Shown: positions 39,201-59,694, counted from the first letter of the stretch. The stretch: DNA of 64,000 bases from Candidatus Micrarchaeota archaeon (GCA_043806595.1 JAZDGU010000029.1:2548-66547); one strand, 5' to 3'. Notes: a model not told the origin generated them from the letters alone. Made by a program: numbers and translations.

Positions 39201-42200
39201 CCCACCGGCGAGCGCGTCCAGCTTGCCCTGACTCTGGGCTCCAGTAGCGCCGGCATCGGACGCCAACAGCGCATCCGCGGCGTTTTCAGGAGTCCCGGCG
39301 CCGTCGGCAGGCGTCTCGAAGTAGAGGAAAACCCCGCCCGCGGTCTGGGCCGCGCCGCCTCCTGCGGGCTCGCCGGTGCCGCCCTCCTGCGCGGCCTTCT
39401 TGGCATCGTCCGTCGAGGCGAGCTCGGGCACCGGGACGGTGAGCGTCTGCTGTGGCACGAGGTCGCCCATGGGCGAGGACGGGAAGAACTCCTTGAGGGT
39501 TTCGTCGAGCGGCTTGCCGCCGACACCGACAATGACGGCGACCCTGCGCTGTTCGGGCTTGGTGGAAATCGCGCCGACGGAACGGATCTCGATGAAGCCT
39601 TCACCGGCCTTTTCCGCGGTGCATTCCGCGATGTAGCCGGTTCCGGCCTTCAGCGCCTGCGGGATGTCGCAGGATGCAAGAATGCTTCCGTCGCGGGATT
39701 TCGCGGCGTAGGAGAGCGAGAGGTCCTCGTCGTAGTTGTTCGTCATGGAGAGCCAGCGCTTGTGGCCGACGTCCTTGAAGACGAGCACCTGCGGCTCGCC
39801 GTTCTTGGCGTTGGTCTGGCCCTGCTGGTAGTTGACGTAGAAGCCGTTGAGCGCCGCGGACAGCTGCTTGCCGAGGTTGCCGAGGCACTTGCCGGTGTCC
39901 ACGAACGAAATCCTGATGGGCGCATCCTTGGCGGGCACCGTGCCCTGCCTTACCACGCCGAAGACGATCAGCTTGCCTTCCACGGACTGTTCCTCGAACG
40001 CCTCGGGCTTGAGGCAGCCGTACTCGTCGAGGAACTGCTCGGGGACGCCGACCTCGACCTCGAAACTCTGCCTCGGGCACGGGTCTTCGCCGGCGAGGTT
40101 GCGCTCGTTGACCCGCATGGAGACCAATTCCTTCAGCCAGGCGCCCTTCTTGGTGATGCTTTTCACCGCGTGGTCGAGGTCGCCCTTGGTAGAGACTATT
40201 GAGGGTCCCTCGAGCCATCCCTGCGGGCCGGAAAGCCGGAGGCCGGAGTTGAGCGGCGTGTTGATTTCCAACCGCACTTCCCTGTTGGAACTTCCCTCGT
40301 TCTTGACGCACAGCAGTTGCGACTGCGTGAGGTGGGAGTTCTCGTTGTTGAAAGTGAAGGTCAGGTCGCCCTCGAGAAGTATCGGGAAGGCCTCGTCGGT
40401 AATCAGCAGCATGCTGCCCTTCGTCTGCTTCTCGCACAGCACGAAGACGGTCTCCTCCTTCTTGGGGACGAGGACCTCGACGGGCGCGGCAGGGGCCTCC
40501 TGGCCGTCAGCAGCTGGTGCTGCAGCAGAGGTCAATATCCGGAAGGAAGGCGGGAAGATGACCTTGCGCACCTGCTTGAGCCCGTATTTCCGCCCGTTGC
40601 GGGAAATCTGGACGGAGAGGCAGGCTCCGTTGAAGTCGGTCTCGCGCGACACCTTGTCGACTTCCGAGGCGGTTGCGGGAAGGGTGTAGGTCACTTCCTC
40701 GCTGAAGATGCCCTTGATGCGGAAGCGTTCCTTGGGCTGGGCCATGTCCGTGGGGGCAATGCGCAACACGAAGAGCGTGTTGTCGGGGATGGTGAACTCG
40801 AGGGGGTCGGAGCCGAAGCTCTCTTCAGTGGTGCGCTTGGACATGATGCGCGTGGCATCGGCCTCGAAGCGGTCCAGCGTCTGTGGATCGGACAGGGTGA
40901 GGGTCACGGGGTTGGAAAGCCGTACTGATTCCATGGGCGAGTCCTTCCAGTAGTCGGTCTTGAGGCCGAGGAGGCTCTCCTGCGGCACGGACACCCCGAC
41001 GTCGAAAGGCAGGGTGAACTCGAAGTCCATGCCCTGCAGCATGGCGAGCTCGGGGTCGACGGTTGTGAAGGTTATTGGCTGGTTGGCGGCAAGCAGGACG
41101 TCGAACGAGGAGTCTTTCCTTTGTGTCTGGGGGGTGAAGCCGGCGGGGAAGGTCGCCTCGTAGCTCGTCGTGGCGATGCGGTTCTGGACGAGGTTCGACT
41201 CGCGGGGGAAGTGCCAGACGGAAGGCGCGGGGAAGGCGACGGTGAAGCTCTCCTGCCCGCGCACGGATTCGGAAGCCTTGAGGATCCTGCGGTCCATGGT
41301 GAGCATCGAGCCTGCGTGAACCTCGAGCTTGGCCGTGCCCTGCGGGGTCTCGGCGGAGGAGGACGCGCCTTCCGCGAGCATCCTGGCTCCGTTGGCGAAC
41401 TCGACGAGCTTGGCGTCGGAGGTCGGCACGTTCCTCACATTGACGTTGGGTGCCAGTGAGAGGCTGAAGCCAGCTGGAATCTCCTTCTCGGAGCCGTAGA
41501 CGCCGAACTCGGCTGGTCCGAGGGACATCTGCGTGTACGGAAGGACGTCAACGGAATAGCTGGAGTCGGGGAGCTTGAGGCCCTTGCGCGCGACACCGTA
41601 GAACGAGAGCTGGCTGCGGTCGTTGGAGATGGAGCTGACGGTGAAGCCGTCCTGCGCGACGCTCACCGAGACCTGCTCGTCCTTCTGGATTCGGAACATC
41701 ACGCGGAACGGCAGCATCATGCTGAGCCTGCCGTAGGGGTCCTGCTGGGCGAAAGGCGAGGGCATGCGGACGGCGCTGCCCGCGGGTATTGTTATCTTCT
41801 TGAAGTCGTTGGAGTCCGTGGAAATTACTGCGTCTGCGGGCAGGGAAATCGTCGTGCCGCTGCGGAACTGGAGCGCCTTGTTGCCGTTGAACTCGTCGCG
41901 CTTGACGCGCACGAACTCCTGCGGCAGGAATACGGCCTCCACGGGGAAGTAGACCTCGTAGGCGTCGCGGGAGGAGACGAAAGGCGTCAGCTGGATGCGG
42001 AAGGGCGTGTTGGAGGGAAGTGAAGCACGGCGCTGGCCGATGTCCCGCTGGCGCGTAAGCCGTATGCTTGCGGGGATGGTGATGTCGAAGTCCTCGACGG
42101 TCGCGGTCTGGAGGGAGCCCTCGCGCGTGAACTCGGTCTCGGGCTCGAAGTCCATGAACAGGCTGACGGGGAAGCGGAGCTCCCACGCGGTGTCGGCCAT

Positions 42201-45200
42201 CGGCTGCTGGTAGGGCTCGTAGCGGTTGGAGTAGCGCTGGTTGCTTGCGACTGCTATCTTGCGCGCCCACGCCGGCGGCACCTGGAAGAACGCGCCCGCC
42301 GGGACTATCGCGGCGAGCGAGCCCGCGGAGGTCTGCAGGGAGAATATGTAGGACGCCTGGTAGGGCGACTGCGCGAGATTCGAGAGGTCGCCGACCTGCG
42401 CGCCCTGCTCGAAGAGCATCGAGTCGCCGCTCGGCAGCTCGACGTACTCCGTTCCGTCGGGGTTCTCCTTGTGCAGGGTGCCCTTGGGGAACTGGAAGAC
42501 GAGCTCGACGGGAAGCGCGAGCCGCACTCCGTTCTTGACCTCGCCGACGTCGGGCAGGGCCTCGGTGGCGCTCACCTCGATTTCGTCGGACGAGCACGGC
42601 GACCCTCCGGCAGCCGTAGTCGCCTTGTAGGTGCCTGCCGCGGGGTAGCTGCATTTGATTGAACAGGAGCCTGTGGTGCCGGTGCAGTCCTTCGCGGTGA
42701 CGGTGCGACCGTTGCCGCAGTTGACTGGAAAGACGTTGGGGGCCTTGGGCAGGTCGTAGTAGCTTATCGTGAGGAGCGTGTTCTGGTTGCGGGAGAGCGT
42801 GGTCGGGTCCGCGGTTATGACGCACTGGGGCTCGGCCTCTGACAGCGGGTCCTCGTCTGGCTTGAGCACGTCGACCTGCACGGCACTGCATTGCGTGCCG
42901 GAGGCGGCTGCCTGGACGGCGTATGTGCCGTCCTGCTCGTAGTAGCACTTGGCCTGGCATGTTCCGGTGGTGCCGCTGCAGCCGGCGGCGTTCGCTGTCC
43001 TGCCGTTGCCGCAGTTGATGAGGAGCGCGTTGGGGGCGCGGGCGAGGTTGTAGTAGTTCGCCGTCACCATCGTGAACTCGCCTTCCTTTATCCTCGAGGG
43101 GTCGATGGTGAGCGCGCAGGAGGGGCGGGATGCCTGAACCTCCACGTATGCCGTCGTACATTCGACGCCGCCGGAAACCGCCAAAACCGTGAACTCGCCT
43201 GCCCGGGGATACCGGCATTTCGCCGAGCACGAGCCGGACTCGCCGGAGCATGAGACCGCGGAAACCTTCCTTCCGTTGCCGCACTCGATTTCGAAGGAGT
43301 TCGGGGAAGGCGAGAAGTCGGAGAAGGCGACGGTAACCGAGGATTCCTGGCCCTCGTCGAGGAGGGAAGGTTCGACGGTGAGGGCGCAGGACGGTTCGGG
43401 CAATGGCGTGGGGGTGACGGTGCCGCCCGAGCCGACGTCGCTGCAGCTGTCCGAGGAAGTGGCCGAATACGTCAGGGAGAGCTGGCGTTTGGAGGAGACG
43501 CCTTGCGTCGTTGCGATAAGCTTGAGCGTCGCGTTGCGCTCGTCCGGCTCGGTTTCGCAGGGGTCGACGGGCATCGCCTTGGCATAGACCCGAAACTCCG
43601 CTGAGCCGCCGCTGGGGACCACCACGGACAGGGGCTCGACGGAGAAAATCCTCGGGAGCGTGTTCTCCTGGTTGACGAGCAGCGGGTAAGGCGCGTCGTT
43701 GGTGACGGTTATCGACTGCATGTCGGACCTGACCTTCGGGGGCTGGAGGGCGAACTGCAGGGACTCGCTGGAGACCTGCCAGAGCGTGCCAAGCTCCTGC
43801 TGGACGAAAGAGGTCTTGACGGTGAACGGCACATATTCCTCCTGAGAGCTTCCGCCGAGCCTGGCGGAAATCCTGATGCGGCCGTTTATCTTCTCGGAGA
43901 CCGTCGAGGCGCGTTCGGCGATCTGGAGGACGGCATCGTCGATTTCGGCGGTCAGGCTCACGGTGCCGGACTGGCGCGCCTTCAACCGCAAGGAGAAGGT
44001 GTCGACGTTGATGCGGGTGTACTTTGGAATCTGCGAGAACTGCAGGGACATGGTCACGGGCACACTGTCCTCGAGGAGGTTGTTCACGGAGAACGCCTGC
44101 TGCTGGGGGTCGCGGGACTCGACGGCGAGGGCAAGGGCAGTTGAGTCGACTTCGACGAGCCTGACTGCGGAAACCAGGAGGGTGCCGCGCTTGGACTTGA
44201 AGCCCTCGGCGTCAATCTTGAAGGATACGTACCCCACGCTGACCGGCCTGATGCCCTCCGCGCGGTACGACGCGCTGCCGTCCCTGCCCTCGGTGTAGAC
44301 GCCCTCAACCTGCGCGCCCCTCAAGGCGTCCGAGCCGTCCCCGAGAACAACTGAAGCGTCCTTGACCGGGAGTCCGAGGGAGTCCGAGACCTTGAACGTT
44401 ACCACGCCGTCGGCAAGCGCCTGCAGCGACTTGGGCGAGTAGGAGACCTTCAGGTCGGGCTTGGTGCCGACGACGCGCGCCGCGAGATTGCGGGTCACCG
44501 TCGACTCGCCGAAGCGCGCCTGCAGCGTCAACGGGACGTCGTTTGAGAGGCGCTGAGCGCGGATTGAGAAGGTGCCGGCTGCGTTGTCATCGGAAGTGGT
44601 AAGCGATATCGCCTGCTCGTCGCCCTTGCGCGCACGCGCGCGGCTGTCACCGCTCACGCCCTCCTCGAGGGAAAGCGAGAGGTCGTCCGCGGGCGAGGTC
44701 AGCTCTATGACCGCGCCGCGTGGGGCCGCTAGCGTGAACTTGAGGGAGAACGTTTCGCCGGACTCCGCGGCGTAGTTGTCCGAGACCGTGCCGCCCCTGC
44801 CCTCGAAGTGAGACTCGAGGCAGACCTCGCCCTCGCAGATGCCGCCGAAGGAGAGGGGAAGCGACACGGAATTGGTTGCCGCGGAGAGGGCGTCGGGCCC
44901 GGCGACGGAGTCGACGGGGTCGCGGAGGATCTCGCGCGAGGTGTAGAACGCGGCGCGGTATTGGACGTTGACCGAGGCGCGGGAAAGCGGCCTGGTGCGT
45001 ATCTGAACGGACACCTCACGGGTGCCCTCGAAGGGCTGGAAGGTGAAGTCCGCGAACTTGTAGCCTTGCACGTCCTCGCCCGCCAGAAACAGGGCGGCGG
45101 CATTCCCGGCCGGGGTCGGCGTCGGGGTCGCGGTGACAGTCGCGGTAGGCTCCTCGCGCGAATACTCGGTGCCCTTGCGGACCACCGCGCTGCCGGAACC

Positions 45201-47240
45201 GTATCCGACTATTTCCGCGGTCTCGCTCTCGAGGGAGGAGTCCTCGTTCCCGATGCGGATGTGAGCCTGTATGCGGGAGACGGAGACCGGCGGCTTGGAC
45301 AGGACGAATCGCAAATTATAGACCGTCGAGGGGGAAAGAGAGGAGGCCTTGTTCCCGGTGAGGTCGTATGCCCCCTGGAACACGAGCTTTGCCCCCGAGA
45401 GCACGCCGACGGGCATCAGCTCGAACTCCTGCTTGTTGTTGACCCCGGGCTTGACCTCGAATTCCGAGGAAAGGAGGTCGTCGTAACCCTCGGCCTCGAC
45501 CCTGGCGGCATAGAAGCCCTCGAGGATCTTGAGGGAACACGCTCCCTTCGAGGTGGTGCAGGAGCCAGTTGCGGCAAACTCGCCCATCGAGGGCGAAAAC
45601 TCGACCCGGGCGCCGTCGATGGTCTTGTTCGTGAAATGGTCGCGGACCTTGACGGAGAGCTTGCCCGGCGCGGGCATGAGTAAGACGTGAAGGAGGTTGA
45701 CGTCCTCGGACTCGCCCGTTCCTTCGACAGTGAGGAGGACGGGCAGGCTGGAGCCGTTCCTTCCCGCGGCGCTCGCAACCGCGATGACCTCGTCGAGGGG
45801 CAGGCCGTCAAATCCCGTCGTGCCGTCCGCGCTCGTGTATTTCTCCGGGACCCCGGTCGGAAGGCCGTCCAAGTAGGAAAGGGATACGTATGCGGAGGGC
45901 ACGAACTCGCCGTTCTTGTCGGTGACCTCGACGACGGCCTTCGCCGAATTGTCCTTGCCGGCCTCCTCCAGCCTGACGGAATACGATTTGCCCTTCTCTG
46001 CGTCCATGATCCTGGCGGGAAGGAAGCCGTACTTGTAGACCGTGACGTAATATGAAGACCTTTCGAGGTCCTTGAAGACGGCGACGCCGTCCGAGGGTAT
46101 TTCCTCGCTTATCTTGGCGCCTTGCGGCTCATGCAGCCAGACCGAGGGATTGGAAAGCGAGCGGTTGTCGGAATCGAAGACGGCTACCGTAATCGAGCGG
46201 AGCTGTTCCTTTGAAACCTTCCTAAGAACCGCGTCGATGCCGGTCTCGGCCTGGACCTCGGTCTCCGCGGAAAGGAAGGCAGGATATCCTGCCGCCTTCA
46301 CGGAGACGTATATGGCCGTTCCTAGCTTGATTTCCTGCGAGGGCACGCCGCCGTCCGCGCCCGACTTGAGGTTCCGGAAGATCGTCTTGCCGGTGCCGGC
46401 CTCGCTTATTTCGATTGTGGCGTTCCCAATGCCCTCGCGGGTGTCCGAGTCGGTGACGCGGATGATAACGCGGCCGTTGACCGCGGACTGCTTCGGCGTC
46501 AGGCCGAAGGGCGGCAGGGTCTTGTCGCTTGAATCGACACGCACGTCGCGCGACTCGTCGTTGAAGCCCTCGGCCTGGACGACGACCTTGTAGGCGGTGT
46601 TCTGCTGGACGTCGAACGTGACAGTAGCCCCGGTCTTGGAATCGGCGATGGGAACGTATGTAGCGGTGTCGAAGAGCCAGAAGGTCGCGGACGAGGGCGG
46701 GGGCTCGACTGAAAGCGCGAGCGAAACAGTGGTCCTTGCGGGTTCGGGCGCGAGCCTGACGGTCACGAGGTTGTTCTCCGACTTCTTGCCGACGCTAACC
46801 CTCGAGCTGGCGCCCGAGTCGAAGGTGAGGGTGGAGCCGTCGAAGCCCGCGGCGGTGAGGGTGAGCTCGGCGCCTACGGGGGCCCCGGAGAAGTAGGCGA
46901 CGCCGTCGGAGCCCGTGGTGGCCTCCATGCGCTTCATGCCGTAGGCGTTCTCGGGGTCGGCGAGGAACACCCTCGCGTCTGACACCGGCAGGCCGTCGGA
47001 TGCGAGCAGCGTGACGGTGACGTCCGCGGTCTTGGGCTCGAATGCCTTCGTGCCGCCGAGCAGAAGGAAGGCGGCCCCGCCGAAAATCAGGAGAAGGATG
47101 AGCAGGAACACGGGCAGCGAGGGAAGGCCCTTCTCCTCGAGCCAGTCCGCGGCGTCCTTGAGGGGGAGGCCCTTGTCCGCGCACCATTCGAGAAAGCCCT
47201 GCCACTTCTCATTGACGGATTCGAAGAATTCCTCGAGCAT
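36267..47240 (-). CDS. giant membrane-anchored surface protein (3657 aa) with many beta-rich Ig/CarbopepD-reg-like repeats, three Cys-rich modules and a roughly 1000-aa non-repetitive C-terminal region
   Basis: Uninterrupted 10,974-nt ORF with host-like GC3. N-terminal signal-anchor LPSLPVFLLILLLIFGGAAFLLLGG. Start set at MLEEFF (47240) because the first in-frame codon (47417) would overlap the upstream Zn-ribbon ORF. Confidence 0.75.
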   Translation of the reverse strand: MLEEFFESVNEKWQGFLEWCADKGLPLKDAADWLEEKGLPSLPVFLLILLLIFGGAAFLLLGGTKAFEPKTADVTVTLLASDGLPVSDARVFLADPENAYGMKRMEATTGSDGVAYFSGAPVGAELTLTAAGFDGSTLTFDSGASSRVSVGKKSENNLVTVRLAPEPARTTVSLALSVEPPPSSATFWLFDTATYVPIADSKTGATVTFDVQQNTAYKVVVQAEGFNDESRDVRVDSSDKTLPPFGLTPKQSAVNGRVIIRVTDSDTREGIGNATIEISEAGTGKTIFRNLKSGADGGVPSQEIKLGTAIYVSVKAAGYPAFLSAETEVQAETGIDAVLRKVSKEQLRSITVAVFDSDNRSLSNPSVWLHEPQGAKISEEIPSDGVAVFKDLERSSYYVTVYKYGFLPARIMDAEKGKSYSVRLEEAGKDNSAKAVVEVTDKNGEFVPSAYVSLSYLDGLPTGVPEKYTSADGTTGFDGLPLDEVIAVASAAGRNGSSLPVLLTVEGTGESEDVNLLHVLLMPAPGKLSVKVRDHFTNKTIDGARVEFSPSMGEFAATGSCTTSKGACSLKILEGFYAARVEAEGYDDLLSSEFEVKPGVNNKQEFELMPVGVLSGAKLVFQGAYDLTGNKASSLSPSTVYNLRFVLSKPPVSVSRIQAHIRIGNEDSSLESETAEIVGYGSGSAVVRKGTEYSREEPTATVTATPTPTPAGNAAALFLAGEDVQGYKFADFTFQPFEGTREVSVQIRTRPLSRASVNVQYRAAFYTSREILRDPVDSVAGPDALSAATNSVSLPLSFGGICEGEVCLESHFEGRGGTVSDNYAAESGETFSLKFTLAAPRGAVIELTSPADDLSLSLEEGVSGDSRARARKGDEQAISLTTSDDNAAGTFSIRAQRLSNDVPLTLQARFGESTVTRNLAARVVGTKPDLKVSYSPKSLQALADGVVTFKVSDSLGLPVKDASVVLGDGSDALRGAQVEGVYTEGRDGSASYRAEGIRPVSVGYVSFKIDAEGFKSKRGTLLVSAVRLVEVDSTALALAVESRDPQQQAFSVNNLLEDSVPVTMSLQFSQIPKYTRINVDTFSLRLKARQSGTVSLTAEIDDAVLQIAERASTVSEKINGRIRISARLGGSSQEEYVPFTVKTSFVQQELGTLWQVSSESLQFALQPPKVRSDMQSITVTNDAPYPLLVNQENTLPRIFSVEPLSVVVPSGGSAEFRVYAKAMPVDPCETEPDERNATLKLIATTQGVSSKRQLSLTYSATSSDSCSDVGSGGTVTPTPLPEPSCALTVEPSLLDEGQESSVTVAFSDFSPSPNSFEIECGNGRKVSAVSCSGESGSCSAKCRYPRAGEFTVLAVSGGVECTTAYVEVQASRPSCALTIDPSRIKEGEFTMVTANYYNLARAPNALLINCGNGRTANAAGCSGTTGTCQAKCYYEQDGTYAVQAAASGTQCSAVQVDVLKPDEDPLSEAEPQCVITADPTTLSRNQNTLLTISYYDLPKAPNVFPVNCGNGRTVTAKDCTGTTGSCSIKCSYPAAGTYKATTAAGGSPCSSDEIEVSATEALPDVGEVKNGVRLALPVELVFQFPKGTLHKENPDGTEYVELPSGDSMLFEQGAQVGDLSNLAQSPYQASYIFSLQTSAGSLAAIVPAGAFFQVPPAWARKIAVASNQRYSNRYEPYQQPMADTAWELRFPVSLFMDFEPETEFTREGSLQTATVEDFDITIPASIRLTRQRDIGQRRASLPSNTPFRIQLTPFVSSRDAYEVYFPVEAVFLPQEFVRVKRDEFNGNKALQFRSGTTISLPADAVISTDSNDFKKITIPAGSAVRMPSPFAQQDPYGRLSMMLPFRVMFRIQKDEQVSVSVAQDGFTVSSISNDRSQLSFYGVARKGLKLPDSSYSVDVLPYTQMSLGPAEFGVYGSEKEIPAGFSLSLAPNVNVRNVPTSDAKLVEFANGARMLAEGASSSAETPQGTAKLEVHAGSMLTMDRRILKASESVRGQESFTVAFPAPSVWHFPRESNLVQNRIATTSYEATFPAGFTPQTQRKDSSFDVLLAANQPITFTTVDPELAMLQGMDFEFTLPFDVGVSVPQESLLGLKTDYWKDSPMESVRLSNPVTLTLSDPQTLDRFEADATRIMSKRTTEESFGSDPLEFTIPDNTLFVLRIAPTDMAQPKERFRIKGIFSEEVTYTLPATASEVDKVSRETDFNGACLSVQISRNGRKYGLKQVRKVIFPPSFRILTSAAAPAADGQEAPAAPVEVLVPKKEETVFVLCEKQTKGSMLLITDEAFPILLEGDLTFTFNNENSHLTQSQLLCVKNEGSSNREVRLEINTPLNSGLRLSGPQGWLEGPSIVSTKGDLDHAVKSITKKGAWLKELVSMRVNERNLAGEDPCPRQSFEVEVGVPEQFLDEYGCLKPEAFEEQSVEGKLIVFGVVRQGTVPAKDAPIRISFVDTGKCLGNLGKQLSAALNGFYVNYQQGQTNAKNGEPQVLVFKDVGHKRWLSMTNNYDEDLSLSYAAKSRDGSILASCDIPQALKAGTGYIAECTAEKAGEGFIEIRSVGAISTKPEQRRVAVIVGVGGKPLDETLKEFFPSSPMGDLVPQQTLTVPVPELASTDDAKKAAQEGGTGEPAGGGAAQTAGGVFLYFETPADGAGTPENAADALLASDAGATGAQSQGKLDALAGGTMQCQTNFCTGNGEQLQDAYKGFGAKLQEFVLKFYFDEKYPKEISTFCNPSEPRLVVHNRNGFYKSIIVQSANTRVSFNELQKSVDEGLGELRDASGEKYVEDFKWDTSGGISSCGIYIVTARLGLCKSPNSFPDKKAWLRSASIEMAVNPADPTQFKACEETLANAGLLTAEDPQIIVGREQVKANTKLPYFELRKPNDAAEAKSIFDKFKLIYFGSYRGGNSELDERNAQGLISALYGSSPNLFSYSPSYSDAGYCTKRLGAVTGSVMAASAPNLVIQGIMATFGVSYALKETVMGFASTLALCGSTSVVNVGNAVFKDANTCDAANACAQGASYYLLNTFTAYIPNFGLKPAEGVSAATMRNIGQAFSAKFLGARFASEFLTFTAFSAVFSGVEYVKGDDKVVAKPDLVLPAGKAFRSILPWGSTAWMAEQGTRYYGLSMGSAYDASIGLRNGIKEAERLGLGGDLSARTITKLVAKGKAAADFHELVKVKIPPNDPVIMDAMSDMLGRDAMEELFDKLADDTLQKSLNPVDNALYQRRMEQIVTSLRGTRSTKAGSTSLWADVVDSLTAAKGPRNGNFLHSGPWPAGISSEAQYLKEETLDHVLEHLRQRGDVATGTRKPFSFKGILKAESIVPADQYDDFLRKMTAKYPRLGTVQNAMSSIPDADVKFGRGATVTDRLLSRTRTLISGGNVKSEKPIIDITRNVLKSEGDDVAKAAKTTGGFFKQFTNAGSRFKSMFAPAKIPRLVGTIVAVLGPILTYADLRPVRAELDYRYGNHVVVFNNPTLDNAPDPVTSVKEICTRDEASKTVCLNRVDANALCPRTKPFCFYFIKGPEYAGVPQYDLLTAFNGRQATQAIAESFFAASKPVQTDSFSVTEAVVTSSALPGYSALEGAGVPVSDEQSGPQTPVPLSEAATNLLARYKEWCDGYQCPPEVVKSIEEAEKLVDQGNDAGYRKALEFLNEALRAQAATSG
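42570..43400 (-). repeat. three tandem Cys-rich modules of about 85-95 aa (about 270 nt each) inside the giant gene
   Basis: Protein repeats SCALTVEPS...IECGNGRKVSAVSCSGESGSCSAKCRYPRAGEF, SCALTIDPS...INCGNGRTANAAGCSGTTGTCQAKCYYEQDGTY and CVITADPT...VNCGNGRTVTAKDCTGTTGSCSIKCSYPAAGTY. Consensus C..(T/I).P......I.CGNGR....C.G..G.C..KC.Y...G.Y. Confidence 0.6.
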
Positions 47241-47320
47241 GCGGATTATCGGAAAGATAGGGCGAAAACACTTATTTAAATACCATCGTAGCGGCCAAAT
47301 GGAAAAAATTCGCGTCCTGC

Positions 47321-47656
47321 TCAGCGGACCCTCCGCTGGAGAGGCAGGACCGAACCGCACTTCCTGCAGACCTTCTCCTTGTGCTTCCAGTTCAGTTCGA
47401 AGTCCGTGCCTCCGCACTCGGGGCAGGCGCGTATCTCGCTCTTGTGGAAGTCCATCCAGCCCTCCTTGCCGTCGCGGCCGGCGAAGGACTGGTGGGAGAA
47501 GGCGACGCGCTCGCGGCGGTCGGTCAGCTGGGGCTTGTCGTCATCGAACTTCTTCTTCTCGACGGCGGGCTTGACCTTGCGGCTGGAGCACCGCGGGCAG
47601 ATGACCGCATCCTCGGCCTCCCAGTGCAGCGAACAATTGTCGCAGGCGTATTTCAT
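47321..47656 (-). CDS. double zinc-ribbon protein (111 aa)
   Basis: CDNC...CPRC and CPEC...CRKC pairs. 80 nt upstream of the giant gene on the same strand. Confidence 0.5.
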   Translation of the reverse strand: MKYACDNCSLHWEAEDAVICPRCSSRKVKPAVEKKKFDDDKPQLTDRRERVAFSHQSFAGRDGKEGWMDFHKSEIRACPECGGTDFELNWKHKEKVCRKCGSVLPLQRRVR

Positions 47657-52974: not shown

Positions 52975-52987
52975 AGTTTAAAAAATG
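52975..52987 (-). promoter_or_regulatory. TATA-like box (TTTTTTAAAC on minus strand) about 35 nt upstream of carA
   Basis: AAGTTTAAAAAATGA in the 58-bp intergenic region. Confidence 0.3.
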
Positions 52988-53005: not shown

Positions 53006-56000
53006 TCAGAGCCGCTCGCGCAGCCTCCTGAGGGCCTCGGCGGCGGAAAACCGGGGAGCCGCCTTCACACCATCCTTCGCATTGCCCGCTTGTACGACGC
53101 CCCCGGGCGGGTTTTCGGCCCGCCGGGCGGAAATGTACACCGCGGCGCCGACAATCAATGCCAGGAGGACGAACGCCAGCCACGAATATTGCATGTAGTC
53201 GAACCCCGCACGTGCCTGCTTCTCCTTCAACAGCCGCTCGTATTCGCGCCGTATCGCGTCCTCGTCGTCGGGGTCGATTCCCATGGACTGCAGGTTCCGG
53301 ATGACCTTGAGCCGGTCCTCCGCGGAAACGTCCCCGAGGTTCAGCCTCGTCCAAACGGCTTCAATCTCGGGAGGGATATATCCGCCGTTCCAGTCCGCCC
53401 AGTCGAAGGTGGGCTCGGGGGTGGGGGTGCCGTCGGGGCCACTGGTGCCGTTGCCGCCGCCCTCGCCGTTTCCGTTACCGTTCCCGTCGGGGCCCCCGCC
53501 GGGCGGCGTTGCAGTCGGGGTTGGAGCAGCGGGGGGAGGGGTGGGCGTGGGCAGGTCGGGCGGTTCGATGATTGAGCCGGTGCCGAGGACGAATGTGAAC
53601 GCGCCCGTGCGGTTCACCGTCTCGTTCCAAGCCTCGGCGTAGGGCCCGAGGTAGTATGTGAACGTGTGCGGCGTGGACAAAACCATGAGCCCCGAATTGT
53701 CCATTTTCTCGCGGAGGGTCAGGGGGGCAGTGCCGTTCGCGAGGAGGATGACGTTCTCGACAGGCCTGCCTGAGACGTTGTAGACCGCGGCGTAGCCGGT
53801 AGCCGGCGATCCGTTGGAATACCTGAACCTCGCCTCGACGTCCCAGTCGAACCCAATCCATGCCGCGGGGTCCAGCGAATAGCGGACCGACGCGGAGCGG
53901 ATGTTGACGAAAGCCATGCTGGACTGGAACGCGAGCCGCGCGTCCAGCGCGTTTGAGGTGAAGGAGGGGCTGCGGGCGGTGATGCAGGGGCCCGAAGGGC
54001 AATCAATGGCGGAGGAGTGGTTGAAGAAAGTGGTGTTCGGGAAGACGTTCGAGCCGGTGCCCCCCCATTCCGACACTCCGTAGGCGTTGCTCCTGAACGC
54101 GTTGCTCTGGAAGACGTTCCGGTTGGACGAGCTGAGCGATGTCCCCCTCTGGGCGCCGGAGACGGAATTCAGCGAGAACAGGCTGTCCGCCGACCACACG
54201 GAAGAGATGCCGGTGCCGCCCTTCATGGCGAAGGCGTTGTTCGAGAACGTGTTGAAGCGGGAGTGGTCCGTGGAAAGCCCCACCGTCGGATCCGCGTAGT
54301 TGGCGTTGGTCGCAGTGAACCTGCAGTTGCTTATGCGCACGCCCTTCCTGCCGGAGACGTTCGCGCCGATCCGCGGAAACGACACGGAATAGCCGGCGCA
54401 GTCAAGGGACGCGTTGTCCGCGGCGAACTCGAAGCAAGGGGCGTTGCCGGGGGCCGTCACGCTCCGTGCGAGGGCGTAATTGCCGGCGGAAGAGAAAGTT
54501 GTGCATGACGAAACCTGCGAGGCGTTGGGCGGCGGGGGCGGCGCCACCGGAGTCCCGGTGCCCCAGGAGAAATTGAATATGCCGGAGCGGTTGACGGTGG
54601 TGTTCCACTGCTCGGTCCTGCCGCCGAGGGTGAAGTCGAAGCGGTGCGGAGTCTGGTTGGTCACATACGCCCAGCTCACACTGCAGCTCGTCCACCGGTA
54701 GGTCTTCTGCCTGAGGCGGAACGCCGCGGTGCCGTTGGCTCCGGTCTGGGCGCCTCCGGCTGCAGCGCCCTGCAGGTCGTGGACCAGCGCGGCGGCGTCA
54801 ACCGGCATGCCTGTAGTGGAGTTCGAAAGGTTTGCGACCGCGTGCCAGTCGACGTAGATGTACACCGGCGGGTTGCCGCCGTACGGGGCGCATAGGCACG
54901 GAATTGATACCTTGGGCTCGCCGGTCAAGGCGTTGAATATCGTAATGTTGGAGGTGAGGGTAGAACTGACGTCTATCCTGTTGTTGAGGAAAGAACAGTT
55001 GTTGATATCAATGGTGGTCAAAGCTAGCACTATGGCCTTCCCGGCGTTCGCGAACGAAGAGCGGGAAATCCGGCCGGTACTGCCCCAGTCATAGCCCGAA
55101 AGCGCATAGGAGTCGTAGTCCGTGAAATCCGAAAAGGTGTTCAGGTCGATGGTGACCGACGACACTCTAGAGACATGCAAGCCGTTCTGCCCGCCCGTGA
55201 AATGATTCCCCGTAAGATTGACGCCAGAGGACCGGTAGATAAGGCCGCTATTTCTTCCTCCGGAAACGCGGTTGCCCACGAACGCGAGCGCGTTGATGTT
55301 GCTGAAATTCAGGCCCGTTGTCTGCGATTTCAGCGAGAGGTTGTTCGCGGTCGCAGTCAAGCCCGTGACGTTGACGAAGTCGAGCGCGTAGGAGTATGTT
55401 ATGTTGGCTGAGGCAGAGAGGTTGCAGTTCGATACCGAGACGTTGCGCCGGTTGTTGGCCCTCACACCGACGTTGTAGTATTCGGCTTTGAATCCCGCGC
55501 AGTCGAGATGGACGTTGTCCGCGGTGATGGTGAAGCACGTCCCGTAATCGGAGGACACGTCGCGCACGAGGACGTAGGAGCCCGGCGCGCCCAACGTCCC
55601 GCAAGCATACACTGGGATGCAGGGCGGGTTCTGCTGAGTGCAGTCCGGGGATTCGAGGACGTTGACTGCTGCCACGCCCGAAACCGCACCGAGGCGCGCC
55701 GTGACCGTGCCATTCGAGGGGGTAGCGCCCGCGGTGAAGAGGCCGGATTGGGTGACTGAGCCGGTGGTGGAGGACCACTCAAGCGGGGGGCAGGCGACGT
55801 TCGACCCGCATTCGTTCGTGCAGGTGGCGGTGAACTGCTGGCTCGCGTTGACGAGGACGTTCGCGGGATCGGGGCTAACGGAAATCCGCGTGATCGCCGG
55901 CTGGGATCCGCCGACGCCGGTGAAACCGTAGTAATTCGTCATGACCAGCGCCCCTCCGGCGATCGCGGCACCCGCTCCATCAGAGGGATTGGAGAGCTGC

Positions 56001-57079
56001 GCCGACTGGCCGATGACGCTCCCGTTTGAAGCCGAAAGGCGCGTCACCCTGAAAGCCGGGCTGTTGTAGTCGCCGGGGAAACACTCCGTCACAACCTCGT
56101 CCTGGCCTTGGAGATAGAACGAGAAATAGGCGCACTTGATGTTGCTGTTCACCCAAACCAGCTGGCCGCTGGAGGAATCGAGCGCGCGCGGCCTGAAGTC
56201 GCCCCTGGGGCCGGAGACGGTGTACAGCCGGCCGCCGTTCTCGGACATGTAATAGCCGCTGCCGTTGACCGGCCCCCAAATCCTCCCGCTGCCGTCCGCG
56301 GCATAGGCGGCAATCTGCTCGATGTAGGGCGGGTGCGTCACGTCTCCCCTAATGCCCCCGAGGAAAATCTTGTCCCCCGAGGAAAGGATCTGCACGGGCG
56401 AGAACCGCGTGTCGTGCAAGGGCACCTGCCAGGCAGTGACCCCGGAATCCTTGTACAAAGCGACGAGGTAGCCGCTCCTCGTGAAGACGAGCACGTTGCC
56501 GGAGACCACTGGAGGGGCGTTGCCGATCGTGGAGGACGTCGCGGTCCAGATGAACTCCTTGGAGACCGTGTCGAAAGCCCGGATCTCGATGGAGTTGTAC
56601 CGCGGGAAGAACACGTAAACCCGGTTCCCCTCGGCGGCGAGCATGGGGGTCGCGCCGGAACCCTCCCCGAGGTAATACTCCTCGCCGAACCACAGCCGGT
56701 CGGTCAGCTCCTGCAGGTAATAGCTGTAGTAATAGTTCTTATGGGTAACCGAATAAACGTTCCCGCCGGCGGTCACCAAACCGGTGGGCGTCCGGTCAAG
56801 GCGGCATGCGCGCGAATCCTTGACGCTCCCGCACGCAACGTCCACCTTCTGCCAGCGGCAGTTCGACCCATCAAGCGTGAAAAACTCCTTTCCGGAAGGC
56901 GCCTCGACGGGACTCGATGCGCTCCAGGTCTTTTGCCACATCACGTAGGACATGTTCAAGGGCGCCGCGGTCGCAACCGACGGATTGCGCTGGCTGCCGG
57001 AGAAGGCCTGGTCCCATATCGCGTTGGAGCACGCCACCGACGCCAAAAGGAAGAGGATTGCTGCGAGCCGCCGGGCCAT
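53006..57079 (-). CDS. large secreted surface protein (1357 aa): signal peptide, PQQ-like beta-propeller, Ig-like (Big_2) domain, parallel beta-helix (NosD/CASH) repeats, Thr/Pro-rich and GNGNG linker, C-terminal TM anchor
   Basis: Signal peptide MARRLAAILFLLASVACSNA. PQQ-type repeats (VYVFFPRYN..., LVALYKDSGVTAWQ). PbH1 repeats (NNLSLKSQTTGLNFSNINALAFVGNRVSGG...). PTPTPPPAAPTPTATPPGGGPDGNGNGNGEGGGNG low-complexity linker. C-terminal helix WLAFVLLALIVGAAVYI plus a 45-aa cytoplasmic tail. Confidence 0.75.
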   Translation of the reverse strand: MARRLAAILFLLASVACSNAIWDQAFSGSQRNPSVATAAPLNMSYVMWQKTWSASSPVEAPSGKEFFTLDGSNCRWQKVDVACGSVKDSRACRLDRTPTGLVTAGGNVYSVTHKNYYYSYYLQELTDRLWFGEEYYLGEGSGATPMLAAEGNRVYVFFPRYNSIEIRAFDTVSKEFIWTATSSTIGNAPPVVSGNVLVFTRSGYLVALYKDSGVTAWQVPLHDTRFSPVQILSSGDKIFLGGIRGDVTHPPYIEQIAAYAADGSGRIWGPVNGSGYYMSENGGRLYTVSGPRGDFRPRALDSSSGQLVWVNSNIKCAYFSFYLQGQDEVVTECFPGDYNSPAFRVTRLSASNGSVIGQSAQLSNPSDGAGAAIAGGALVMTNYYGFTGVGGSQPAITRISVSPDPANVLVNASQQFTATCTNECGSNVACPPLEWSSTTGSVTQSGLFTAGATPSNGTVTARLGAVSGVAAVNVLESPDCTQQNPPCIPVYACGTLGAPGSYVLVRDVSSDYGTCFTITADNVHLDCAGFKAEYYNVGVRANNRRNVSVSNCNLSASANITYSYALDFVNVTGLTATANNLSLKSQTTGLNFSNINALAFVGNRVSGGRNSGLIYRSSGVNLTGNHFTGGQNGLHVSRVSSVTIDLNTFSDFTDYDSYALSGYDWGSTGRISRSSFANAGKAIVLALTTIDINNCSFLNNRIDVSSTLTSNITIFNALTGEPKVSIPCLCAPYGGNPPVYIYVDWHAVANLSNSTTGMPVDAAALVHDLQGAAAGGAQTGANGTAAFRLRQKTYRWTSCSVSWAYVTNQTPHRFDFTLGGRTEQWNTTVNRSGIFNFSWGTGTPVAPPPPPNASQVSSCTTFSSAGNYALARSVTAPGNAPCFEFAADNASLDCAGYSVSFPRIGANVSGRKGVRISNCRFTATNANYADPTVGLSTDHSRFNTFSNNAFAMKGGTGISSVWSADSLFSLNSVSGAQRGTSLSSSNRNVFQSNAFRSNAYGVSEWGGTGSNVFPNTTFFNHSSAIDCPSGPCITARSPSFTSNALDARLAFQSSMAFVNIRSASVRYSLDPAAWIGFDWDVEARFRYSNGSPATGYAAVYNVSGRPVENVILLANGTAPLTLREKMDNSGLMVLSTPHTFTYYLGPYAEAWNETVNRTGAFTFVLGTGSIIEPPDLPTPTPPPAAPTPTATPPGGGPDGNGNGNGEGGGNGTSGPDGTPTPEPTFDWADWNGGYIPPEIEAVWTRLNLGDVSAEDRLKVIRNLQSMGIDPDDEDAIRREYERLLKEKQARAGFDYMQYSWLAFVLLALIVGAAVYISARRAENPPGGVVQAGNAKDGVKAAPRFSAAEALRRLRERL

Positions 57080-57224
57080 AAGTGAACTACTGCGGCGTAT
57101 TAAAAAACGATGCCTGCGGCGAGGGGTCCGGACACCGTCCGGCAGATGCCCCGCGCGCCCGAAACCCCGTCTCCCGCCGCGAACGGTTTTTAAGGGATTC
57201 CCCGCTAATGCACGCATGTTCCTC

Positions 57225-57899
57225 TTCGACAACGTGCTCAAGCTGCTGGCGAAGGTCTTCCGGGTGGTGAACCGGCGGAGGTCGGTGGCCATCACGTTCC
57301 TCGTCGGGTCGCCGCTCACAGTCTACTGGTTCCGGACGATATGGCTGGAGCAGCCGTTCACGATGCAGGTGGTGGCGGTGTACAGCCTCGTCTTCCTGCC
57401 CTTCCTGCTCTACAAGGCGCTGCTGTACTTCTTCCTTTCCCTCTTCGATACCGTCGTGATATTCTTCGCGGACTACACGAAAAGCTACGACGTCGACTTC
57501 GAGAAGGTTCGCGCGCGCGTCGCCAAGATACTCGTCGAGAAGAACGTAAAGTACCAGTCGCTCGACAGCATGGCTCTCGGCGCGGAAAGGGGCCTCCTTG
57601 AACGACTGCGCGGCTGGCTCCACATAAAATACCCGCTCATCTTCGTCTGCGCCGACGACCCGTTCGTTGTAATAAAGATATTCAAGTCCCTCGGCTCGCC
57701 GCGCATCCAGGACCTCAAGCACCAGATTACGCACAAGGAGGCCATCAGCGTCAAGATATTCTTCGAGGAGGAACCGAGGGCGCGCGTGCTCGCCAAGCTG
57801 ATAATGAACTCGCTGGAGGTGCTCAACACCGACCAGAGGGAGGCCGAGCCCCCCGGAATTGCAGTGCAGGCGATCCAACTCTCCGACGAGGGCAGGTGA
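57225..57899 (+). CDS. hypothetical membrane protein, paralogue A (224 aa), unrecognised family
   Basis: N-terminal TM helices, then cytosolic motif EKVRARVAKILVEKNVKYQSLDSMALGAERGLL...PLIFVCADDPFVVIK. Start at first Met after the divergent intergenic region. Confidence 0.5.
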   Translation, partial: FDNVLKLLAKVFRVVNRRRSVAITFLVGSPLTVYWFRTIWLEQPFTMQVVAVYSLVFLPFLLYKALLYFFLSLFDTVVIFFADYTKSYDVDFEKVRARVAKILVEKNVKYQSLDSMALGAERGLLERLRGWLHIKYPLIFVCADDPFVVIKIFKSLGSPRIQDLKHQITHKEAISVKIFFEEEPRARVLAKLIMNSLEVLNTDQREAEPPGIAVQAIQLSDEGR

Positions 57900-58480
57900 G
57901 CATGGGCACCCTCCGTTTAGCGGTCAAGGCATGTTCGGCGCTGAATTCGCGGCCTGTGACGATAATCCTCATTGTCGCGGGATTCGTGATCAGCATACTC
58001 GCCTTCCCGAAACTCTATTCGGACGGGCTCTCCCGCAAGGAGGCCTTCGCGGAAGTCCTTTTCATTTTCGTGCCCCTTCTCTTCGGGAAGCTCACCAGCC
58101 TCACGCTCCTCTCGTTCGTCGACTTCACGCTCGGCAAGAGCCAGGAATCGTACCGGTACCGGCTCAACATCGAGAAAGCCCGAGCGCGCGTGATAAGGAT
58201 CATGGTCGAAAAGAAGGTGAGGAGCTATTCGCTCGATTCCATGGCGTTGGGAAGCGAGAGGCTGTTCCTCACCGCCGCGGCGTACATCCTGCACGCGGCC
58301 GGGGTGAAAGGCGAGCCGCCCCTCGTCATCGTCGGAGAAAACCCATTCGTGCTTGTGCGGATGCGCCGCCAGCCCGTGGCCGCGGACGAGGAAGAGGGGA
58401 TCAGCGCGCAGCTCCACTACGACGACCAGAAGGGCCAGGTGCTCTCCAAGCTGATTTCAAGCACGCTCGGCGCGCCGTAG
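57896..58480 (+). CDS. hypothetical membrane protein, paralogue B (194 aa), unrecognised family
   Basis: Shares EKARARVIRIMVEKKVRSYSLDSMALGSERLFL...PLVIVGENPFVLVR with paralogue A. GTG start overlapping A's stop (ATG 6 nt later). Confidence 0.5.
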   Translation: MSMGTLRLAVKACSALNSRPVTIILIVAGFVISILAFPKLYSDGLSRKEAFAEVLFIFVPLLFGKLTSLTLLSFVDFTLGKSQESYRYRLNIEKARARVIRIMVEKKVRSYSLDSMALGSERLFLTAAAYILHAAGVKGEPPLVIVGENPFVLVRMRRQPVAADEEEGISAQLHYDDQKGQVLSKLISSTLGAP

Positions 58481-58548
58481 CCGGTAAACCCGCGGTTGAT
58501 TCGGCTTCTACCCACGTAATATTAGCCTCTCCGCCGACTGGGAATCGC

Positions 58549-59694
58549 ATGGAAGAGCTGGGGTGGGCGACATTCGGAAACCCCTCGGCAGGCTATTCCG
58601 TCGGGAAGGCCTTCGACTTCAGCGCCGCGGAGCTGCGCGCATTCTCCTCGGCCATGTCCGAGCTGAGGGAAGGCGCCCCAGGGGAGCCGACCGCTTTTGC
58701 CGCGGTGGTGTCCGCGTGCGAGAAATTGGAACTCCCCCTTTCAAGAGCCCGCGCGGAGCTGGTCGCGCAAGCCGCGGAGCTCAACCTGAATGGCTCCGGA
58801 ATCCTCGGCCTGCTGATGGACGACGAGGACATCGAGGAAATCGCCGTCATCGGGATAGGAAAGCCCGTCCGCGTCTACCTGCGCGGCCGCGGATGGCGGG
58901 AGACCGACTGCATGCTCGCCAGCGAGGAATTCGCGGTCAACGCCGTCAACTCGATTGCCCGGCCGCTCGGCCGCAGGCTCACATATTCCAGCCCGCGGCT
59001 TAACGCCGGCATGCGAAATATGAGGCTGCACGCGAGCATGCCCCCGCTTTCGCGCGAAATAGAGATAACCATCCGCAAGTTCACAGCGAAGCCGATGCCC
59101 ATGGCGGAGCTGGTCGGGCGCGGCATGCTTACAGCGGAACAGGCCGAATTGCTGGGCAGAGCGGTGGCCCGCGACACGTCGGTCCTCGTAGCCGGGAACA
59201 CGGGCAGCGGGAAGACCACGCTCCTCAACGCGCTATTCGAGGCCGTGCCGCGCCACGAGAGGATAATCCTCATCGAGGAGACGCCGGAACTCCGGCTGCC
59301 GCACGAGCACTTGGTCGGCATGGTAAGCCAGAAGGAGCTCGGGATTTCCATGGCGTCGCTTGTCGAGGACAGCCTCCGCATGCGGCCGGACCGCGTCGTC
59401 ATCGGGGAGGTGCGCGCGCCCGAGGAGGTCAGGGCGCTCTTCGACTCCCTGCTGGCGGGGCAGGCCAAGTCCGCGTATTCGACGTTCCATGCGAATTCCG
59501 CGGCGGAGTCCTTGGAGAGGCTGGTCTCCCTCGGCGCCCGCAGGGAAGAGCTCGACTCGCTCGGGCTCATCGTGGTGTGCAAGCGGGCGACAATCCCGGG
59601 ACCGCAGGGAGTGCCGGCGGCCGAGTCGCGGCGCGTTACGGAGATTGCGGAGGTCAGGAAGGGCAGGGCAAGGAGGCTATCCGCCCGCAGGTGA
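58549..59694 (+). CDS. type II/IV secretion-system family ATPase (VirB11/CpaF/FlaI-like)
   Basis: Walker A VLVAGNTGSGKTTLLNAL, Asp box RIILIEETPEL, Walker B DRVVIGEVR, His box AYSTFHANSA. N-terminal 170 aa not recognisable. Confidence 0.75.
   Translation: MEELGWATFGNPSAGYSVGKAFDFSAAELRAFSSAMSELREGAPGEPTAFAAVVSACEKLELPLSRARAELVAQAAELNLNGSGILGLLMDDEDIEEIAVIGIGKPVRVYLRGRGWRETDCMLASEEFAVNAVNSIARPLGRRLTYSSPRLNAGMRNMRLHASMPPLSREIEITIRKFTAKPMPMAELVGRGMLTAEQAELLGRAVARDTSVLVAGNTGSGKTTLLNALFEAVPRHERIILIEETPELRLPHEHLVGMVSQKELGISMASLVEDSLRMRPDRVVIGEVRAPEEVRALFDSLLAGQAKSAYSTFHANSAAESLERLVSLGARREELDSLGLIVVCKRATIPGPQGVPAAESRRVTEIAEVRKGRARRLSARR

Follow-up and report, generated by a model that had tools for sequence, protein, structure and literature searches.

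A probable surface adhesin or ligand-binding protein of a Micrarchaeota archaeon, joining a propeller and Ig-like head to doubled beta-helix modules and a membrane anchor

The gene described here encodes a protein of a Micrarchaeota (DPANN) archaeon that we consider, with a probability of roughly 0.6, to be a type I membrane-anchored surface adhesin or ligand-binding protein. Domain scores, a signal-like N-terminus, enriched glycosylation sequons and a C-terminal transmembrane (TM) helix support the view taken in a preliminary description that it is a large exported, anchored, multi-domain surface protein. We infer the binding role from fold and context only, and the ligand would most likely be a glycan or glycoprotein, either on a partner cell or in the archaeon's own envelope. 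Like other DPANN archaea, the tiny symbiotic Micrarchaeota grow attached to archaeal partners, and for the largely uncharacterised molecules that establish and specify this contact the leading candidates are surface proteins that are large, glycosylated and quick to evolve.

The window, i.e. the whole stretch of 64 kb (64,000 nucleotides) that was analysed, contains the open reading frame of 1357 codons with the domains named in the preliminary description, which is confirmed overall (Table 1). The translated protein is 100% identical to the NCBI entry 'MAG: NosD domain-containing protein [Candidatus Micrarchaeota archaeon]' (P0001). The open frame extends upstream to a GTG at position 57319, corresponding to 1437 amino acids. 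We rejected this longer start and prefer the ATG because the NCBI record comprises the same 1357 residues, a hydrophobic signal-like peptide begins at residue 1, the TATA-like sequence TTTTTAATA is found some 20 nt ahead of that codon, and the remaining 136 bp are needed by the divergent gene. The pattern TTTTTWAWA occurs three times in 64 kb (0.27 expected), and two of the three occurrences flank the gene. Downstream, the T-run TTTTTTAAA is likely to be the end of the transcription unit and/or the carA promoter. As previously noted, carA, carB and a giant open reading frame of 3716 amino acids lie on the same strand; the neighbourhood comprises carAB, an epimerase, a T2SSE-type ATPase, Kae1 and the PolD small subunit. 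BLASTP against all window ORFs and against the protein itself revealed neither a paralogue nor an internal repeat, and a link to the giant reading frame was rejected as the two share no similarity. We also dismissed a tandem repeat in the linker-coding DNA as trivial, since it amounts to a hexanucleotide only (CCGTTA x 3.7).

Table 1. Features of the gene and the encoded protein, with positions in the window
Feature	Residues	Position	Strand	Basis or remark
Whole CDS	1-1357	53006..57079	(-)	1357 aa + stop, ATG start
TATA-like box TTTTTAATA		57098..57106	(-)	~20 nt upstream of ATG
Signal-like peptide MARRLAAILFLLASVACS	1-18	57026..57079	(-)	hydropathy peak at residues 4-23
BamB/PQQ-type beta-propeller	~75-390	55910..56857	(-)	Pfam PQQ_2, AF2, Foldseek
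Ig-like beta-sandwich (Big_2-like)	396-478	55646..55894	(-)	weak Big_2, AF2
Module A right-handed beta-helix, Cys-rich N-cap	489-730	54890..55615	(-)	NosD, module B alignment
Module A beta-sandwich	737-845	54545..54871	(-)	aligns with module B sandwich
Module B right-handed beta-helix	854-1069	53873..54520	(-)	
Module B transthyretin-like beta-sandwich	1074-1171	53567..53860	(-)	AF2, Foldseek
Pro/Thr-rich and Gly/Asn-rich linker (IIEPPDLPTPTPPPAAPTPTATPPGGGPDGNGNGNGEGGGNGTSGPDGTPTPEP, residues 1170-1223)	1172-1223	53411..53566	(-)	sequence, model
Conserved acidic helical domain next to membrane	1224-1297	53189..53410	(-)	alignments, model
Single TM helix YSWLAFVLLALIVGAAVYISA	1298-1318	53126..53188	(-)	hydropathy up to 2.38
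Cytoplasmic tail	1319-1357	53009..53125	(-)	sequence, model, P0007/P0008 alignment
T-run/TATA-like TTTTTTAAA		52977..52985	(-)	in 58-bp spacer preceding carA

The N-terminus (MARRLAAILFLLASVAC) carries two arginines, a hydrophobic core of 12-13 residues and small residues at positions -3/-1. Hydropathy shows just one further hydrophobic stretch, located near the C-terminus, and the relatives P0003, P0007 and P0008 begin with similar peptides. The signal peptide proposed earlier is retained as a signal-like N-terminus, judged, like the TM helix, by hydropathy and homologues. Given the RR at positions 3-4, a Tat route would be formally open. A canonical lipoprotein was rejected, since SVAC does not fit a lipobox, which needs L/V/I at -3. 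The protein contains 25 cysteines and 32 N-X-S/T sequons, a two-fold enrichment over shuffled sequences (16.7 +/- 3.7; 0 of 2000 shuffles reach 32), while cytoplasmic CarB has one. The TM helix is followed by basic residues, and the net charge of the tail is +5. Together these sequence signals suggest that the protein is probably exported by Sec and heavily N-glycosylated.

The PQQ-type propeller of the preliminary description holds, with PQQ_2 (PF13360) scoring 28.5-33.8 bits, above the gathering cut-off of 27.6. This is further supported by the AF2 model of the head, which matches BamB (Foldseek E 6.9e-12, TM 0.64) and the archaeal S-layer YVTN propeller and PKD structure 1l0q (E 7.3e-10, 450 columns), the model being of moderate quality (mean pLDDT 60, residues 14-100 unreliable) and, like the other AF2 model, resting on a very shallow alignment (4 and 2 sequences). 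For the Big_2-like domain, the score of Big_2 (PF02368) is 16.6-18.6 bits and thus below the gathering cut-off of 22.8, too low for formal family membership; the Ig-like sandwich itself stands, and 'Big_2-like Ig fold' is a fair description because, despite that score, the model gives a beta-sandwich here with confidence (pLDDT ~90). It is also the best conserved part common to this protein and P0003.

The beta-helix repeats noted in the preliminary description are present, but they are arranged as two duplicated modules, each consisting of a Cys-capped helix followed by a transthyretin-like sandwich. The internal duplication of the helix region is clear from Smith-Waterman alignment (308 vs 45 +/- 7.6 for shuffles). 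NosD (PF05048) scores 55.4 bits for the whole protein, 27.8 for module A and 41.9 for module B against a cut-off of 23.6, and Beta_helix (PF13229) scores 32.1 against 25.9. The modelled three-dimensional fold is a right-handed beta-helix of the pectin-lyase type. The module B sandwich is modelled with a pLDDT of ~80-90 and matches transthyretin, CnaB-type and PapC C-terminal domains in Foldseek; the boundaries of its counterpart in module A were set by homology to this model. Over 195 module copies the four cysteines of the helix cap, which also carries an LDC motif, are conserved or nearly so (74-100%). The conserved columns are Cys, Gly, Asn and the aliphatic ladder positions. Only two positions are charged in all four close modules, D526/D893 in the LDC motif and D703/D1046 in the last coil, and both sit in caps.

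These observations bear on whether the protein is a cell-anchored enzyme that depolymerises or modifies polysaccharides (a lyase, hydrolase or epimerase). In such a scenario one or both helix modules would, in the manner of a cell-fixed tailspike, cut or remodel glycans of a host envelope, biofilm matrix or S-layer glycoprotein, aided in substrate binding by the propeller and Ig-like domain. The same idea has been proposed for pectin-lyase-fold surface proteins of Nanobdella (bioRxiv 10.1101/2023.10.27.564410), and Pect-lyase_RHGA_epim of Pfam gives a weak match (18.4 bits vs a cut-off of 27). The solved proteins of this fold are mostly enzymes acting on polysaccharides, so that one of the modules could conceivably be enzymatic. 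However, no CAZy-type family, be it polysaccharide lyase, GH28 or alginate epimerase, reaches its threshold in the Pfam searches, no PHROG tailspike family matches, and neither the four close modules nor the 195 copies show conserved catalytic-type residues or a cluster of acidic, basic, His or Tyr residues in the helix body. The fold itself is about equally like lyases, epimerases, tailspikes, NosD and adhesins. We regard an enzyme as possible but unlikely: the protein is apparently no conserved enzyme, and glycan cleavage, which the preliminary description had put forward beside glycan binding, is conceivable but unsupported.

A true NosD-type accessory protein of N2O reductase maturation, or a PQQ-dependent dehydrogenase, is hardly credible despite the family matches. 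With NCBIfam TIGR04247 the protein reaches 32.3 bits where 300 are required, and no nosZ, nosF or nosY occurs among the window ORFs scanned. PQQ_2 is a generic BamB-type repeat family, and quinoprotein dehydrogenases match far less well than BamB in Foldseek. With the architecture being that of a surface protein, we rejected both on scores and gene context.

The Thr/Pro-rich and low-complexity stretch reported earlier corresponds to the linker and is predicted to be disordered (pLDDT below 40). It is followed by a helical domain of ~75 amino acids with the consensus ED.LKVLRRL..MG.DP.EEEA.LR.YEEL.KEK in alignments with P0007 and P0008, further supported by a local phmmer match (E 1.7e-8). The model shows three helices, of which the last continues into the TM helix. 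Neither a Pfam scan nor a PDB sequence search yielded a family or structure for this domain, and for the C-terminal module as a whole Pfam gave noise only and the PDB nothing meaningful. The helical domain had gone unmentioned in the preliminary description. The single C-terminal TM helix given there is borne out by hydropathy and the model, in which it is helical, and is conserved in P0007 and P0008. The tail is basic as described (7 Arg and 2 Lys vs 4 acidic residues) but 39 rather than 45 residues long; it contains a conserved PP and ends in an amphipathic helix, AAEALRRLRERL.

A C-terminal TM helix followed by a basic tail is ordinary type I topology, and the anchor is in this respect not 'unusual' as had been claimed. 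What sets it apart is the helical domain, small and conserved, that precedes the TM helix. The distinction from the PGF-CTERM arrangement, in which PGF directly precedes the TM helix and a very short basic tail follows, is upheld: the protein lacks PGF over its whole length, its tail is long, and no exosortase or archaeosortase matched among the ~40 ORFs scanned in the window.

The anchor region also raises the question of a structural envelope component, either an S-layer protein or a SlaB-like stalk by which an S-layer is anchored. The order of sandwich, linker, helices and TM helix resembles SlaB, which Foldseek retrieves (8qox_B, 108 columns, 18% identity, E 2.2e-3), and archaeal envelopes typically contain glycosylated proteins that are anchored at the C-terminus. 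Yet only ~50 helical residues precede the membrane, modelled as three short helices after a disordered linker in place of a long coiled coil. Moreover, the protein is nearly a singleton, which counts against a lattice protein because one would expect the lineage to conserve the core of its lattice. A structural role is improbable on these grounds.

Beyond the identical NCBI entry, four proteins match the full-length query, each over part of its length, and 108 distant module matches are found among 1.84 billion representatives. A PDB sequence search with the whole protein gave nothing below E 0.1, and PHROGs hold no family for it. P0003 (1206 aa) shares only residues 13-481 (28% identity, E 3e-41) and consists of signal peptide, propeller and Big_2 head, ending in a plain TM helix and RRR. 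P0007 (553 aa, MBU1197470.1) and P0008 (653 aa) comprise one helix and sandwich module and a Pro/Thr linker, followed by the anchor with helical domain, TM helix and PP tail. Another Micrarchaeota MAG encodes P0003 and P0007 in two separate genes. The three are true homologues of parts of the protein, while the full architecture is present in none. By these alignments the protein is a mosaic, in which a propeller and Ig-like head is joined to a doubled helix and sandwich module with its anchor.

The continuous run from Cys-capped helix to PP tail is found in this protein, P0007 and P0008, and a profile of the C-terminal module, run against the window ORFs, the fetched loci and 107 distant relatives, retrieved no others. 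Scans of a genome collection and metagenomes returned the P0007 locus only (L004 being identical to L003). An exact-sequence look-up of the protein gave no contig on record. Judged at the sequence level, the helix and sandwich module with its helical-TM anchor is previously undescribed and known from these three proteins.

In the adhesin or ligand-binding reading, the propeller and Ig-like domain would form the outermost, distal head, with the two tandem disulfide-capped pectin-lyase-fold helix and transthyretin-like sandwich modules below it. A flexible Pro/Thr/Gly/Asn spacer of ~50 residues may hold the protein away from the membrane. The last helix of the acidic domain would run into the TM helix, and this helical-TM module would fix the protein and possibly oligomerise it, leaving the basic tail of 39 residues innermost in the cytoplasm. 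A further, rather doubtful extension is that residues 1224-1357 are a Micrarchaeota-specific cassette for anchoring and oligomerisation that is shuffled between surface proteins, and that the duplicated helix modules act as cell-bound tailspikes recognising, perhaps cutting, the glycan coat of the host archaeon where the cells touch; if true, the protein would be a host-specificity determinant of an ectosymbiont. The protein illustrates how such surface proteins are assembled, as head and anchored module are separate genes in a related genome and are here joined, with the module doubled. This makes it a reasonable subject for localisation and binding studies, although no long-standing question is opened by it.

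Among known systems, the protein is like the archaeal S-layer protein of the 1l0q type (2002, Structure 10:1453, cited in PMC5498576) in being exported and in having a propeller followed by Ig-like and beta-helix domains. In contrast to that system, its propeller is BamB/PQQ-type and not YVTN by sequence, its Ig-like domain is Big_2-like and not PKD, its helix modules are duplicated with a sandwich of their own, its anchor differs, and there is no detectable sequence homology. Strain-specific propeller/PKD surface proteins have been described in Micrarchaeote Mia14, with a proposed role in host contact (PMC5498576). In Nanobdella aerobiophila, pectin-lyase-fold surface proteins of 908-1320 amino acids carry 36-52 glycosylation sites, and surface proteins with C-terminal TM helices are also found (bioRxiv 10.1101/2023.10.27.564410). 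MJ1_0451, MJ1_0701 and MJ1_0776 as well as MJ1_0299, MJ1_0309 and MJ1_0707 are comparable in size, sequons and C-terminal TM helices, and share Ig-like folds, the parallel beta-helix and the setting of a DPANN ectosymbiont; they belong, however, to another phylum, a propeller head and a membrane-adjacent helical domain are unreported for them, and the likeness is one of description only. The protein is not a NosD equivalog (PF05048; PDB 7o0y, 7osf), with 32 vs 300 bits and neither NosFY nor a nos cluster. SlaB, the S-layer anchor of Sulfolobales (PDB 8qox chain B), likewise has sandwiches followed by helices as a stalk and a single TM helix at the C-terminus, but it forms a long trimeric coiled coil and has no beta-helix or propeller, whereas the helical part here is short and follows a disordered linker. 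Surface proteins combining propeller, Ig-like and beta-helix domains have long been known in archaea including DPANN, and the Micrarchaeota protein is a fresh example of this established type rather than the sign of a new type of system.

Judged by the end-to-end alignment of residues 489-843 with residues 855-1169 (29% identity; Smith-Waterman score 308 compared to 45 ± 7.6 for shuffles), the helix region of the 1357-aa predicted surface protein is an internal duplication. The architecture therefore contains two helix-plus-sandwich modules (A and B), and its order is signal peptide, propeller, Ig-like domain, (helix + sandwich) x 2, linker, helical domain, transmembrane (TM) helix and tail. 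The preliminary description had overlooked this duplication, while the parallel beta-helix repeats it proposed are recovered. Pfam NosD scores 27.8 and 41.9 bits in the two halves of the region (cut-off 23.6) and Beta_helix is also above its cut-off at 32.1 bits. In a model of residues 851-1357, based on a four-sequence alignment (mean pLDDT 74), module B forms a right-handed beta-helix (pLDDT 75-96) followed by a beta-sandwich (about 80-90). Each helix carries four Cys in its N-terminal cap that are conserved or nearly so (74-100% of 195 module copies from 101 proteins), which would fit disulfides in an exported protein.

For the head, the assignment of a PQQ-type propeller is confirmed by PQQ_2 scores of 28.5-33.8 bits (Pfam cut-off 27.6) and by the Foldseek match to BamB (E 6.9e-12, TM 0.64) of a model of residues 1-485, which was derived from an alignment of two sequences (mean pLDDT 60; propeller 60-89). 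The same model matches the solved structure 1l0q, 'tandem YVTN beta-propeller and PKD domains from an archaeal surface layer protein' (E 7.3e-10). The suggested Big_2-like domain holds as an Ig-like fold, modelled at a pLDDT of about 90, but its Big_2 score of 16.6-18.6 bits is under the Pfam cut-off of 22.8. A true NosD or PQQ-enzyme was rejected (TIGR04247 32 bits vs 300; no nos genes among the window ORFs scanned).

The protein has only two hydrophobic stretches, residues 4-23 and 1298-1318, and 32 N-X-S/T sequons, a two-fold enrichment over shuffles (16.7 ± 3.7) that none of 2000 shuffles reaches; CarB has one sequon. The N-terminal hydrophobic peptide, the single further stretch and the sequon enrichment agree with the signal peptide and surface exposure claimed earlier. 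Taken together with 25 Cys, the conserved cap Cys and the basic residues after the TM helix, they support a predicted topology in which the N-terminus is outside and the C-terminus is inside.

The C-terminal TM helix with an Arg-rich tail is upheld, although the tail is 39 aa long, with 7 Arg, 2 Lys and 4 acidic residues, and not 45. A stretch of about 75 residues (1224-1297), which follows the low-complexity linker and precedes the TM helix, forms an acidic helical domain that had been missed. In the model the linker is disordered (pLDDT below 40) and is followed by three helices, the last running continuously from 1273 to 1322 through the membrane segment; a short terminal helix spans residues 1346-1356. 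The protein is indeed not of the PGF-CTERM type, as the PGF motif is absent and the tail is long, and no archaeosortase was found among the approximately 40 ORFs scanned in the window. The absence of PGF-CTERM is unremarkable, and the anchor, described as unusual, is of an ordinary type. With these corrections the preliminary observation holds, and its interpretation is supported in part.

Besides the identical NCBI entry, a full-length search retrieved four proteins that match in part. P0003, a Micrarchaeota protein of 1206 aa, shares only residues 13-481 (28% identity, E 3e-41); beyond these it has Cys-rich parts, additional Ig-like regions and, at the C-terminal end, a plain TM helix with RRR after it. 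When residues 486-1170 were searched exhaustively by HMMER, 1.84 billion representatives gave just 108 matches at E <= 0.001 (best non-self match 1.3e-14), most of which cover no more than a module's first 100-190 residues. The named matches are archaeal and mostly DPANN (Micrarchaeota, Woesearchaeota, Nanoarchaeota), with Marsarchaeota and Halobacteriales also represented; one bears the label PGF-pre-PGF. Similarity over a whole module together with the C-terminal anchor is seen in two proteins: P0007 (553 aa, Micrarchaeota, MBU1197470.1) and P0008 (653 aa, known from a read-archive assembly only). They share with the 1357-aa protein the motif ED.LKVLRRL..MG.DP.EEEA.LR.YEEL.KEK, the TM helix LAF.LVVVIVGAA.Y and PP in the tail, and P0008 alone ends in LAELRKKL, resembling AEALRRLRERL of the 1357-aa protein. 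With the anchor profile, no additional copies turned up in the window, the fetched loci or 107 distant relatives, a metagenome scan re-found the P0007 locus and nothing else, and helical domain plus TM matched no Pfam or PDB family. The three proteins share a small, previously undescribed helical-TM anchor cassette, which is modestly new.

P0003 and P0007 come from one metagenome-assembled genome, JAHJQN01. P0003 shares the head only and P0007 the module and anchor; in the 1357-aa protein, a head like that of P0003 is thus fused to two copies of the P0007-type module and to the same type of anchor as in P0007. This mosaic, assembled from pieces that a related genome encodes separately, is likewise modestly new. 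P0007 stands in one row with three other large proteins, likewise secreted or anchored: an RHS-repeat protein (1861 aa, weak dockerin match), a protein of unknown function (600 aa, hydrophobic stretch at the N-terminus) and an LVIVD/PKD protein (859 aa, C-terminal TM helix). The four may form an island of surface proteins or toxins. At the P0003 locus (L001), a 392-aa NosD/Beta_helix protein is encoded 4 kb from P0003. Its match to a class III (pilin-like) signal peptide is weak (19.7 bits, cut-off 23.7), and it could be exported by the pilin route.

The open frame extends upstream as far as a GTG at 57319. We favour the ATG as start because the NCBI entry 'MAG: NosD domain-containing protein [Candidatus Micrarchaeota archaeon]' (100% identity) also spans exactly 1357 aa, the hydrophobic N-terminal peptide begins at residue 1, the TATA-like TTTTTAATA sits about 20 nt upstream and the divergent upstream gene begins just 136 bp away. 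The pattern TTTTTWAWA occurs three times in the 64-kb window (62% G+C) compared to 0.27 expected; two copies precede the start codons of this gene and carA by 20-35 nt, one of them in the 58-bp spacer separating the stop of this gene from carA. The pattern is likely a TATA box of the source organism. With TATA-like elements before both genes and a divergent gene upstream, the gene looks like its own transcription unit. The ORF map bears out that it shares its strand with carA, carB and the giant 3716-aa ORF, and also with an NAD-dependent epimerase.

Other loci were noted alongside. The first two divergent genes encode paralogous small membrane proteins of no known family with the common motif VEK.V.Y/SLDSMALG.ER. 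The third encodes a T2SSE/TadA/FlaI-type ATPase; since the next gene is Kae1, on the opposite strand, neither a platform protein nor a pilin gene comes after it. In L001, too, a T2SSE ATPase is encoded about 9 kb from P0003. The 3716-aa ORF has a single hydrophobic stretch, close to its N-terminus, CarboxypepD_reg (residues 133-208) as sole Pfam domain above cut-off, and 5 sequons compared to 20.1 ± 4.1 (2000 of 2000 shuffles have at least as many), a strong depletion opposite to the enrichment in the 1357-aa protein; should its product be at the surface, N-glycosylation seems to be avoided. The 943-aa ORF is probably a spurious high-G+C antisense ORF, as are several others in the window.

Coordinates of features in the window and, where indicated, in the fetched homologue loci
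Feature	Position	Strand	Remark
ORF of the 1357-aa protein	53006..57079	-	from ATG
Three divergent genes	57216..59694	+
Paralogous small membrane proteins	about 57216..57899 and 57896..58480	+
T2SSE/TadA/FlaI-type ATPase	start probably near 58513	+
TTTTTWAWA copies	52977..52985, 57098..57106, 15398..15406	-	pattern count
3716-aa ORF	36267..47417	-
SF1 helicase (AAA_11/AAA_12) fused to MTES_1575 restriction-endonuclease-like domain	9864..13652	+	1262 aa
IS66-family transposase	18036..19361	+	within G+C dip, 53-56% vs about 62%
943-aa ORF	30015..32846	-	no family; antisense to EF-1-alpha gene 31428..32771 (+)
Row of four proteins including P0007	L003 497..12267	+	JAHJQN010000004.1, Micrarchaeota
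392-aa NosD/Beta_helix protein	L001 17884..19062	-

Hydrolases, lyases and epimerases of the pectin-lyase fold use a conserved acid/base set in the central coils. The four close modules have only two charged positions in common, D526/D893 within the LDC cap motif (present in 84% of all modules) and D703/D1046 in the last coil; the remaining conserved columns are all Cys, Gly, Asn or aliphatic ladder positions. The central coils of these modules thus have no conserved acid/base set, and for this reason a binding role is preferred to catalysis. Of the glycan binding or cleavage proposed earlier, binding is favoured, and an anchored depolymerase, against which the missing acid/base set speaks, is kept as the main rival. 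With moderate confidence, we regard the protein as a putative adhesin or receptor rather than a catalyst. That it is the main S-layer protein is unlikely, as predicted S-layer proteins of Micrarchaeota have an MSTP-like sandwich fold and the protein is nearly a singleton.

The domain combination has parallels. Archaeal surface proteins with propeller, Ig-like/PKD and beta-helix domains have been known since the Methanosarcina work behind 1l0q, which PMC5498576 cites, and the present protein likewise combines propeller, Ig-like domain and beta-helix. In the micrarchaeote Mia14, strain-specific propeller/PKD surface proteins are proposed mediators of host contact (PMC5498576). The cultivated DPANN archaeon Nanobdella has pectin-lyase-fold proteins of 908-1320 aa with 36-52 sequons and Ig folds, and other surface proteins with C-terminal TM helices (bioRxiv 10.1101/2023.10.27.564410); the protein described here is similarly of pectin-lyase fold, sequon-rich and equipped with an Ig-like fold and a C-terminal TM helix. 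It is a new member of a kind of archaeal surface protein that is already known.
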